Of a stretch of DNA of 64,000 nt, positions 59,424 to 62,400 are shown piece after piece. A program made the position numbers and the translations under genes. Origin of the DNA: Paraspadella gotoi (lineage: Eukaryota; Animalia; Chaetognatha); NCBI GenBank assembly GCA_051294375.1, contig CM119267.1, positions 4,173,260 to 4,237,259 of the forward strand, given 5' to 3'. How positions within the stretch are numbered: position 1 is the stretch's first letter; each line of letters begins with the position of its first letter. A model generated the notes under the pieces. It worked only from the letters and a program-made list of their open reading frames with translations, did not search any database and was not told where the DNA came from.

Positions 59424-62400
59424 ATGGTGCAGACATATCAAAGTCCAGTCAGGGTTTACAAATACCCTTTTGAACTGGTTATGGCTGCTTACGAAAAAAG
59501 GTTCCCAACTTGCGAAATGATTCCAGGTCAGTTTCTGTTTAGTTTCTCTCGATAAATGCGGACTTAAAGAGTGTCGAGTCTATTCCCCGTCATTTTCTTC
59601 GTCTCTTTCCTCAGTTTTCTTGGGAAGCGACATAATTTTCGAGCATCAAGACGACGACGGAGCGACTCACGTTGTGGAGCGGCGATGTAGACTTAACGTT
59701 GAGGCGAGGAAACAAAAACAAACAAACAAATTTTATTCTTCTTTTAAAACTTAAGTACATAAATAATTTAAAAATACGTTTCTCCTCTTTTCCGACGCAG
59801 GTTCCCTATCTGCTGAAAAAAATATCGGGAATCGAACACGCGATCTTCATTCAGAAGAATTCGCTCAACCGTAAAAATAGAAAGTTGGTGATCGAAGCTC
59901 GTAACGAAAGCTTTAACACTCGCGTCATCATTCGGGAAACCTGCACTTACAGCGTGCACCCCGAGAATGAACAATGGACGTGTTTCGAACAGGTGGGTTA
60001 AGGACTTAAGGACGAGGGGAAGTTAGCGTGACGAATCGATCTTTTCTTCGACATCTCACCAAAATTTCTAGGAGGCTTCACTGGATGTCAAATCTTTCTT
60101 CGGCTTCGAGGCGACGGTGGAAAAGATCGCAATGAAGCAATACTCGGCCAACATCTCTAAGGGCAAGGAAATCATCGAGCACTTCATCAATGAGTTGGCC
60201 GACGAAGGCGTGACGGAGGTTCCGCCGTGGCAGCCCGGTGTTGTGGGCAAGCTCTACGCCTCCGACGCGGAAAGGGCCGTAATGCTTGAGAGTTCCACCG
60301 TGCCGGACGTCGTGACCGCGACGCCTGTCGAGGCGGCGGCGGCGGCGGCGGAGGCTACCTCGACGGCTGCGGCAGAAGCGAGGCGTCGCTCTTCGACGCC
60401 GAAGGCCGAACCAACGACGCCGGACGATTCTGACGACGACGGATTCGTCGATGCAGAATCCTTCGCCGTCGACGATGACGCCGCTACTGGCGTCGCCGCC
60501 GCTGCCGCCGGTGGAGAACCGGTCGTCGGCGCGTCGAAGGAAGAGGGAGGGAAACTGGCGAGATCCAAATCCGCGGGATCGAGACCCAAATCTCCGGGTA
60601 AAATAATCGAATCGTATTTAGTTTAGAATATTCCTTTGCAACCCCAAATCTATACTTATTAGATGCGGATGGAGATCGCGTGACGCCCCCGGTGCCGGCG
60701 TCCAAACTGGACAGCGACTACATCGAGAGGTTCTTGGGTCAACTTTCCATCACCCAAGAGTCTTGCCTCGTGCAGCTCCGAAACAGACTCGCAGAGACGC
60801 ACAAAGGAAAGATGCCCAACGACGCTCACCTTCTCCGCTTCCTGCGGGCCAGGGACTTTAACGTGGAGAAAGCGCGCGACATGATCTGCCACTCTATTGC
60901 TTGGAGAAAGCAGCATAGAGTGGACAACATTCTCAACACTTACTCGTCACCCGAAGTCATGAAATTTTTTCCTGGTTGGTATATTTTTTGGGTTTACCGA
61001 AAAGGGGAAAAAAATGTTAGTATGGCAACGGGAGGATAGCCTGTGATACCCGGGGCGCGGGGTATCTCACCAACTGGAATAGGGGCTGCGGACCCTCAGT
61101 GACCGCCTCCTGTCACTGGCATGTTTATACCGGCACCGTCACATTTAAGCCAGAACCGGGATACCCAGGGATTGAACCCGGGACGCACGGATGGAATGAG
61201 ATGATTTAGCCTGCTCAGCCATTGAGACGAGGCTGAGGACGGACAGCAGTGAGGCAGCTTTTAAGTCTTGCTGCCACAGGATCCCCCACCAGACTTCTCC
61301 ACAGGGGCCTTAATCCTGAGGAGATGTCTGAGAGAAGGTTTTGATCTCATTGCCATAGTGAGAGCGACGTGGGCGAGCGAGCGAGCGAGTCTGGAGCGTT
61401 ACCAGAGAAGTAGGGCATAGGCGTGATATGCATACCCTAAGCGACGTAAGCGTGGGCGCACGGTGCGCAGCGGTTGCGTGTTCGAGAGTAGGGCTCACCA
61501 CTTATGGCAACGGGGGGATAGCCTGTGATACCCGGGGTGCGCGGTATCTCACCAACTGGCGTAGGGGCTGCGGACCCTCAGTGACCGCCTCCTGTCACTG
61601 GCATGTTTATACCGGCACCGTCACATTTAAGCCAGAACCGGGATACCCAGGGATTGAACCCGGGACGCACGGATGGAATGAGATGATTTAGCCTGCTCAG
61701 CCATTGAGACGAGGCTGAGGACGGACAGCAGTGAGGCAGCTTTTAAGTCTTGCTGCCACATTAGCTCCTTTTTTTTCGTTCCCAGGCGGCTGGCACAACA
61801 ACGACAAACTGGGACGCCCTCTATACATCCTGCGCCTCGGTCTGATGGACGTCAAGGGACTGATGAAGAGCGTCGGCGGCGAGGGCATCCTCCGTCACAT
61901 CGTGTCCATCGCCGAGGACGGGCTCCGCCACTGCGAGAAAGCCACCCATCACGCCAAGTCGCGCGGACCCATCAGCACCTTCACCTGCGTCGTCGATCTG
62001 GAGGGCCTCTCCATGCGGCACCTGTGGCGGCCGGGCGTCAAGGCTCTCCTCCGCATCATCGAGGTCATGGAGGCCAACTACCCCGAGACCCTCGGCCGGC
62101 TCATCATCCTCCGGGCGCCGCGAGTGTTCCCGGTACTGTGGACGCTCGTCCATCCCTTCATCGACGAGAAGACGCGCGAAAAGTTCGTCATCTCCACCAT
62201 CGTCTCCCACGGCATCAACGAAGTCGTGGAGCCGGACCAGGTGCCGGATTTTCTCGGCGGACCCGCCCGCTCCGACATCCCCGCCGGTGGGCTCGTGCCC
62301 AGGTCCTACTATCACTTCCACGCCCACGACTTCGACGCGGAGCAGGACAAGGAGACGCCGACCCTCTTCGGAGAGGAAAACATCTACAAGCGGGCCTCGT

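Follow-up and report, generated by a model that had tools for sequence, protein, structure and literature searches.

Structure of the Element and Its Insertion Site

The analysed stretch of Paraspadella gotoi DNA (64,000 nt; the window) contains, within an intron of a SEC14-like 1 gene, a short non-coding element composed of two LTRs and an interior. Its main features are the following:

60975-61785, plus strand: host intron of the SEC14-like 1 gene (67 nt without the TRIM)
61021-61760, minus strand: TRIM, 740 bp, non-coding (LTR, interior, LTR)
61503-61760, minus strand: 5' LTR, 258 bp, TG...TA termini (sequence comparison)
61021-61278, minus strand: 3' LTR, 258 bp (5 mismatches to the 5' LTR, all at LTR 200-246)
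61279-61502, minus strand: interior, 224 bp, non-coding
61017-61020, plus strand: TSD TTAG, left copy (single in the empty allele)
61761-61764, plus strand: TSD TTAG, right copy (single in the empty allele)
61488-61500, minus strand: PBS (11 of 13 nt as in the tRNA-Trp PBS of the published Gypsy-32_NVi and Helenus-2_SyJa sequences consulted, by-eye comparison)
61282-61290, minus strand: weak PPT GGTGGGGGA (8 of 9 purines, 3 nt ahead of the LTR)

A direct-repeat comparison found the LTRs identical at 253 of 258 positions, with TG...TA rather than TG...CA termini. The PBS sequence TGGTGAGCCC begins 2 nt past the 5' LTR on the minus strand, with TGG at that offset. The longest ORFs starting with ATG encode 31 amino acids in the sense and 87 in the antisense direction. 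The element is inserted antisense to the host gene, 21 nt before the intron acceptor, and a contig from the public sequencing run X9 joins the flanking exons. The original prediction, which had described two 258-bp LTRs, a 4-bp TTAG TSD, a PBS-like site, a lack of coding capacity and an antisense position in a SEC14L1 intron 21 nt from the next exon, was confirmed on all of these points, the TSD length being seen at the SEC14-like 1 locus alone. Of the PPT that it had also named, a purine-rich tract is present, but this tract is weak.

The five differences between the LTRs all fall inside 47 nt (61033-61079 and 61515-61561, respectively; p ~0.004), perhaps as a result of recombination between copies. 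The best 120 of 1279 protein matches to the host SEC14L gene were all at most 63% identical and spread over several phyla. Other repeats in the window comprise a long AT-rich inverted repeat at 27080-29094, which has 860-nt arms with 98% complementarity and likely represents a DNA element of the foldback or MITE type, and a short dispersed AT-rich repeat of 57-85 nt at 26389-26449, 51525-51612, and 63218-63302, whose copies are 85-96% alike and occur in both orientations. A repeat at 29953-29989 was rejected as a relative of the TRIM and regarded as a short chance match.

Copies and Alleles in Public Sequencing Runs

Assembled contigs from 7 of 14 public runs were compared with the TRIM and its flanks. 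The empty-site allele that the original prediction had proposed to look for was found in run X5, in a contig of 1835 nt (depth 233.2) whose bases 1-367 correspond to 60654-61020 and bases 364-1004 to 61761-62400, with one TTAG between the flanks; here, two flank records were treated as one contig given their equal length and depth. A contig in X7 that starts at 61761 and contains no LTR sequence likely represents the empty allele as well, and one in X4 that extends 28 nt into the LTR, which is below the 31-letter bar of the comparison, likely represents the filled allele. The single TTAG of the empty allele indicates that the insertion is recent and polymorphic. Contigs aligning to one LTR plus the interior numbered 1725 in X5 and 468 in X4, and 53 contigs in X5 had loose, AT-rich ends at the LTR terminus. 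The depth of the interior was ~110-150 times that of the flanks, a crude figure that should not be read as a copy number. The original prediction of a young, Helenus-like TRIM is supported, and the TRIM is multi-copy.

Runs X4, X5, and X7 also contained diverged copies, ~83% identical across 241 LTR bases (61021-61261), and many internally deleted copies, which indicate that the TRIM family is older than the insertion in the SEC14-like 1 intron. Run X9 was considered as a source of expression evidence. Its interior contig had a depth of 897.5 compared to 271.5 for the host gene, and spliced contigs were present, but single decayed copies occurred at a depth of 7-14, so that DNA carry-over of ~100-150 interiors could explain the depth; X9 was therefore counted neither way. 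Low-depth pieces of the TRIM in X10, X11, and X12, which have other organism codes, may be carry-over and were not used to assess the distribution of the family.

tRNA-Type Promoter and Transcription Signals

The following candidate transcription signals were located in and next to the element:

61692-61703, minus strand: A box, 5' LTR (LTR 58-69; motif match)
61651-61660, minus strand: B box in a T-arm hairpin, 5' LTR (LTR 101-110; motif and fold)
61210-61221, minus strand: A box, 3' LTR (motif match)
61169-61178, minus strand: B box, 3' LTR (motif match)
61008-61014, minus strand: earliest T run in element sense, 7 nt beyond the 3' LTR (might terminate Pol III in flanking DNA)

Within the window, the combined pattern of A and B box occurred only in the two LTRs, and it was found in 38 of 100,000 shuffles. 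Compared to the Helenus consensus (TRGCY...YGG), the A box reads TGGCT and ends with AGG instead of YGG; the B box motif GGTTC is intact. Among the copies of the family, both boxes are nearly free of the listed variants and the spacer between them varies. An A box, a B box, and a T-arm in element-sense orientation are thus present in each LTR as originally described. The tRNA-like part does not amount to a whole tRNA: ARAGORN (default settings) predicted 0 genes, and the Rfam search gave no tRNA match.

The element strand of the 482-nt unit formed by one LTR plus the interior contains no TTT, which held for 0.7% of 20,000 mononucleotide shuffles. The absence of TTTT is unremarkable, as 80% of 5000 dinucleotide shuffles likewise lacked it. 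The tRNA-like start of the LTR (61696-61710) agrees at 13 of 15 bases with the tRNA-Thr-like start of the bivalve element Helenus-3_CGi (in the portion of PMC10886601 Fig S1 consulted).

A Predicted Twister Ribozyme in Each LTR

Directly downstream of the B box, both LTRs contain a segment that very probably folds as a twister ribozyme of the circularly permuted type P5:

61556-61635, minus strand: type-P5 twister with P3, 5' LTR (LTR 126-205; descriptor match, sequence only)
61074-61153, minus strand: type-P5 twister, 3' LTR (same core, P5 4 of 5; same basis)
61608-61609, minus strand: predicted self-cleavage between U152 and A153, 5' LTR (from the twister consensus)
61126-61127, minus strand: predicted self-cleavage between U and A, 3' LTR (from the twister consensus)

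The LTR segment was assigned according to the strand order of type-P5 twisters. The existence of this permuted form is on record in the literature consulted. According to this assignment, the stems are P5 (LTR 126-130/201-205), P2 (135-138/155-158), T1 (141-143/188-190), T2 (159-160/193-194), P3 (7 bp), and P4 (4 bp), and all of their pairs in the 5' LTR are of the Watson-Crick type (5/5, 4/4, 3/3, 2/2, 7/7, and 4/4, respectively). P1 is a short hairpin (LTR 144-151) containing one G-U, the sole non-Watson-Crick pair in the 5' LTR. The catalytic bases A153 and G139 are both present, with G139 and A140 being the equivalents of G45 and A46. The segment also has the NAA triplet at the cleavage site, and it is open at P5 and closed at P1. 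A twister descriptor was built from features in the consulted part of PMC8501958 Table 1, leaving position 28 free and not requiring P1, P3, or P5. It was composed after inspection of the LTR sequence, and its features are those of the published consensus. It matched twice in the window, once in each LTR, and even its loosest version found 0 matches in 200,000 dinucleotide shuffles.

In the rice twister Osa-1-4, four positions (G13, G30, A46, and G48) tolerate no change (PMC5113685), and the equivalents of all four are retained in the LTR twister. Its core departs from Osa-1-4 in two respects, namely A28C and a flipped T1 pair (C27G plus G47C). According to the supplementary values consulted (PMC5113685), A28C has a relative activity of 1.00 in Osa-1-4, and C27G has 0.13 alone but 0.86 in combination with G47C; the column layout of these values was verified against the tabulated A28G value, and A28C and the flipped pair were measured separately. 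Of the 57 positions of the twister core, 3 are affected by variants in the family, compared to 5 of 9 for N-1 together with the P1 hairpin, which is dispensable (Fisher p 0.0007); elsewhere in the LTR, 135 positions include 19 that vary. When the core was compared with the rest of the LTR based on X5 variant rows of at least 1%, the difference was not significant (1 of 57 versus 11 of 135; p 0.11). A second listing included, among the variants listed, rare core variants at LTR 156, 186, 193, and 198. Two positions private to the copy in the SEC14-like 1 intron lie outside the range in which variants were counted. The LTR twister is quite probably catalytically active.

The Rfam search of the LTRs returned no twister-P5 match and no twister at the gathering score. 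The twister-P1 model gave weak matches in both LTRs (18.4 bits versus a cut-off of 67.2; E 0.69 and 1.2). The miss by the twister-P5 model may be due to the 22-nt insert in P3. The type-P1 reading suggested by Rfam was rejected: it pairs 2 of 4 positions in P2 and 1 of 3 in T1 and lacks A46, and its apparent P1 is a helix of a competing fold (see below); the strand it lacks is located upstream, as in the type-P5 register. Covariation in P1 is not claimed either: LTR 144 and 151 show unphased variants toward pairing bases, and the one X11 contig is mismatched. The initial reading as a young Helenus-like TRIM stands but was incomplete in that it overlooked the type-P5 twister in each LTR, the presence of which likely shifts the life cycle from that of a plain TRIMp3 to a retrozyme-like one.

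Predicted Unit RNA and Proposed Replication

Two further features bear on the RNA that would be produced:

61127-61608, minus strand: predicted unit-length RNA between the cleavage sites, 482 nt (folding z -2.67; equal or better stability in 1 of 100 shuffles)
61536-61561, minus strand: segment of a predicted competing, ribozyme-off fold (hairpin LTR 200-211; helix LTR 142-152 with 214-225)

Transcription by Pol III would start near 61710, as judged from tRNA geometry, and both LTR twisters would then self-cleave (61609/61608 and 61127/61126) and free the 482-nt unit. Ligases of the RtcB type join such RNA ends, and a host ligase would close the unit into a circle, which the competing fold would keep from being cleaved again. 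Reverse transcription would be primed by tRNA-Trp and, like integration of the 482-nt circle, would likely be carried out by a Gypsy-type partner, to which the 11/13 match of the PBS to the tRNA-Trp site of Gypsy-32_NVi points. Since a doubly cleaved linear unit would have no terminal repeat for strand transfer, the two LTRs could be rebuilt only via a circle copied for more than one round, as has been modelled for plant retrozymes. The interior segment 61350-61364 repeats, in inverted orientation, the LTR end plus the start of the PBS; in the unit RNA it is predicted to base-pair with the PBS, and it may gate priming.

Nested-fold prediction speaks against the twister reading. In ViennaRNA, which does not handle pseudoknots, the probability of P2 was 0.0 and that of P5 at most 0.35, and the competing fold was favoured in the 5' LTR once LTR 206-226 was present. 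At the SEC14-like 1 locus the competing helix had a predicted probability of 0.85 in the 5' LTR and 0.09 in the 3' LTR. This asymmetry, as well as the absence of a Pol III terminator inside the TRIM, is in line with a twister that mainly forms 3' ends: the 5' LTR would remain uncut owing to the competing fold, cleavage in the 3' LTR would yield a linear RNA in which roughly LTR 51-152 is repeated, and ordinary strand transfer would follow. However, the asymmetry rests on changes absent from most family reads, so that typical copies hold two like ribozymes, and the plant retrozymes of the same layout yield circles according to the sections of PMC4918200 consulted. This use of the ribozyme is conceivable but rather improbable.

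It is unlikely that the element is a plain Helenus TRIM whose twister is an inactive passenger or a packaging structure alone. The lack of an Rfam match at threshold would agree with a passenger, as would the competing fold, which under the type-P1 reading is ~6 kcal/mol more stable in the 5' LTR than the nested part of the twister-like fold, but all pairs and catalytic bases are intact, the departures are tolerated ones, and variants cluster in P1, which is dispensable. The element also seems very unlikely to be a retrozyme whose transcription by Pol II starts from an upstream LTR or a host promoter and whose A and B boxes are relics of a captured SINE. The LTRs of plant retrozymes do possess promoter activity of their own in the accounts consulted, box A of the TRIM is imperfect, and the consulted part of PMC10886601 calls the use of Pol III by Helenus unvalidated; yet the near absence of listed variants from the A and B boxes, next to a variable spacer, and the missing TTT in the 482-nt unit speak against this reading. 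Based on the sequence features described above, we lean slightly towards a retrozyme-like spread of the TRIM by means of a Pol III transcript, double twister cleavage, a 482-nt circle, and copying by a Gypsy-type partner; the circle route itself is given the same slight preference.

Relationship to Known Mobile Elements and Ribozyme Systems

The TRIM resembles Helenus (TRIMp3; Kojima, 2024; PMC10886601, in part) in having a size below 1 kb, two LTRs with tRNA-type A and B boxes, a putative PBS, the 4-bp TSD of animal members, and no intact tRNA. The earlier assignment as Helenus-like is thus corroborated by the boxes, TSD, and size. It differs from Helenus by the predicted twister in each LTR, as the consulted part of PMC10886601 describes no ribozyme for this group. 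In most animal Helenus LTRs in that part (by eye, uncounted), a T run follows soon after the tRNA part and is followed by the LTR end, whereas ~140 more bases, which hold the predicted twister, follow in the TRIM. Among the families in the consulted portion of Data S1 of PMC10886601, none has the same PBS 9-mer, end of the LTR, or words from the twister loops as the TRIM, a search in which words split at line ends could be missed. Metagenomes scanned for a B box plus twister loop yielded 24 loci, none of which had blastn similarity to the TRIM and which gave 0 Rfam twisters in the 20 of 24 tested. Scans of viral contigs for the same core gave at least 120 matches and 1 match, respectively, which were rejected as relatives. 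Of the metagenomic and viral loci, 7 of 145 among the matches listed passed a loosened descriptor, which is about chance by a rough estimate.

The LTRs of two Helenus families from Synergus gall wasps, Helenus-2_SyJa and Helenus-2_SyUm, were read by eye according to the layout of the hammerhead core. Both possess an intact core with a 6-bp stem III, a 7-bp stem I, and a 4-bp stem II (Helenus-2_SyJa-LTR and Helenus-2_SyUm-LTR in the portion of Data S1 consulted). They have complementary loops of 12 nt, make up two of the eight places holding the core word, and are unmentioned in the consulted part of PMC10886601. As in the TRIM, the A and B boxes are followed by a self-cleaving ribozyme motif, a T run is absent there, and the PBS is of the tRNA-Trp type in the entries consulted. 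Their ribozyme is a type III hammerhead rather than a twister, and the remaining sequence is dissimilar by eye. A review, in the part consulted, refers to forthcoming work on insects with elements of the type III hammerhead kind, and the wasp case may be known to its authors. The location of the Synergus hammerheads in the same slot and the similar PBS indicate that animal LTR retrozymes may recur. The chances thus appear about even that animals harbour recurring, undescribed LTR retrozymes, i.e., TRIMs in which a self-cleaving ribozyme replaces the Pol III terminator after a tRNA promoter and which replicate via small circular RNAs. The twister in one case and the hammerhead in the other suggest that the ribozyme class is interchangeable. 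As the LTR twister scores below the Rfam thresholds, repeat libraries probably conceal further cases of this kind.

The literature consulted presents LTR retrozymes as hammerhead-bearing elements of plants, and the retrozymes of animals as devoid of LTRs, PBS, and PPT. An animal TRIM in which twisters in tandem follow a tRNA promoter would connect TRIMp3 with retrozymes, and the twister offers an answer to how an LTR element driven by Pol III sets its RNA ends. Like the plant LTR retrozymes (Cervera, 2016; PMC4918200, in part), the TRIM is non-coding and has a predicted ribozyme in both LTRs, a putative PBS, a weak PPT, a 4-bp TSD, a G+C content above 55%, and an inferred dependence on Gypsy elements. 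Unlike them, it resides in an animal, possesses a predicted twister instead of a type III hammerhead, a tRNA-type internal promoter, and a Trp-like rather than a Met PBS, and its unit comprises 482 nt compared to 600-1000 nt (PMC4918200, same part). It probably works like a retrozyme and stays outside the plant retrozyme family.

A literature search, with most subscription journals and most supplements outside its range, found no twister in an LTR element. The twister variants of Perere-3 (Liu, 2021; PMC8501958, in part) likewise process retrotransposon RNA and have a P1 tolerant of changes, but they are of type P1 and occur singly, at the 5' end of a non-LTR element that is autonomous. In the SINE-like hammerhead repeats of Schistosoma, as in the TRIM, a self-cleaving ribozyme comes after a promoter of the Pol III type, and the animal non-LTR retrozymes share with the TRIM a unit-length RNA between tandem ribozymes; both differ in having type I hammerheads in tandem arrays and in lacking LTRs, PBS, and PPT (PMC6765202 and PMC7229834, parts consulted).

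Few functions have so far been assigned to twister ribozymes. In the engineered Tornado system, the RNA is flanked by two twisters and ligated by RtcB. The consulted part of its description (10.1101/2023.07.11.548538) reports a Pol III promoter combined with twisters and small circles in animal cells, the same arrangement as proposed for the TRIM, in a system that is synthetic. If the reading favoured here is correct, the TRIM would be a natural counterpart of Tornado and would give twister ribozymes a definite function in biology.
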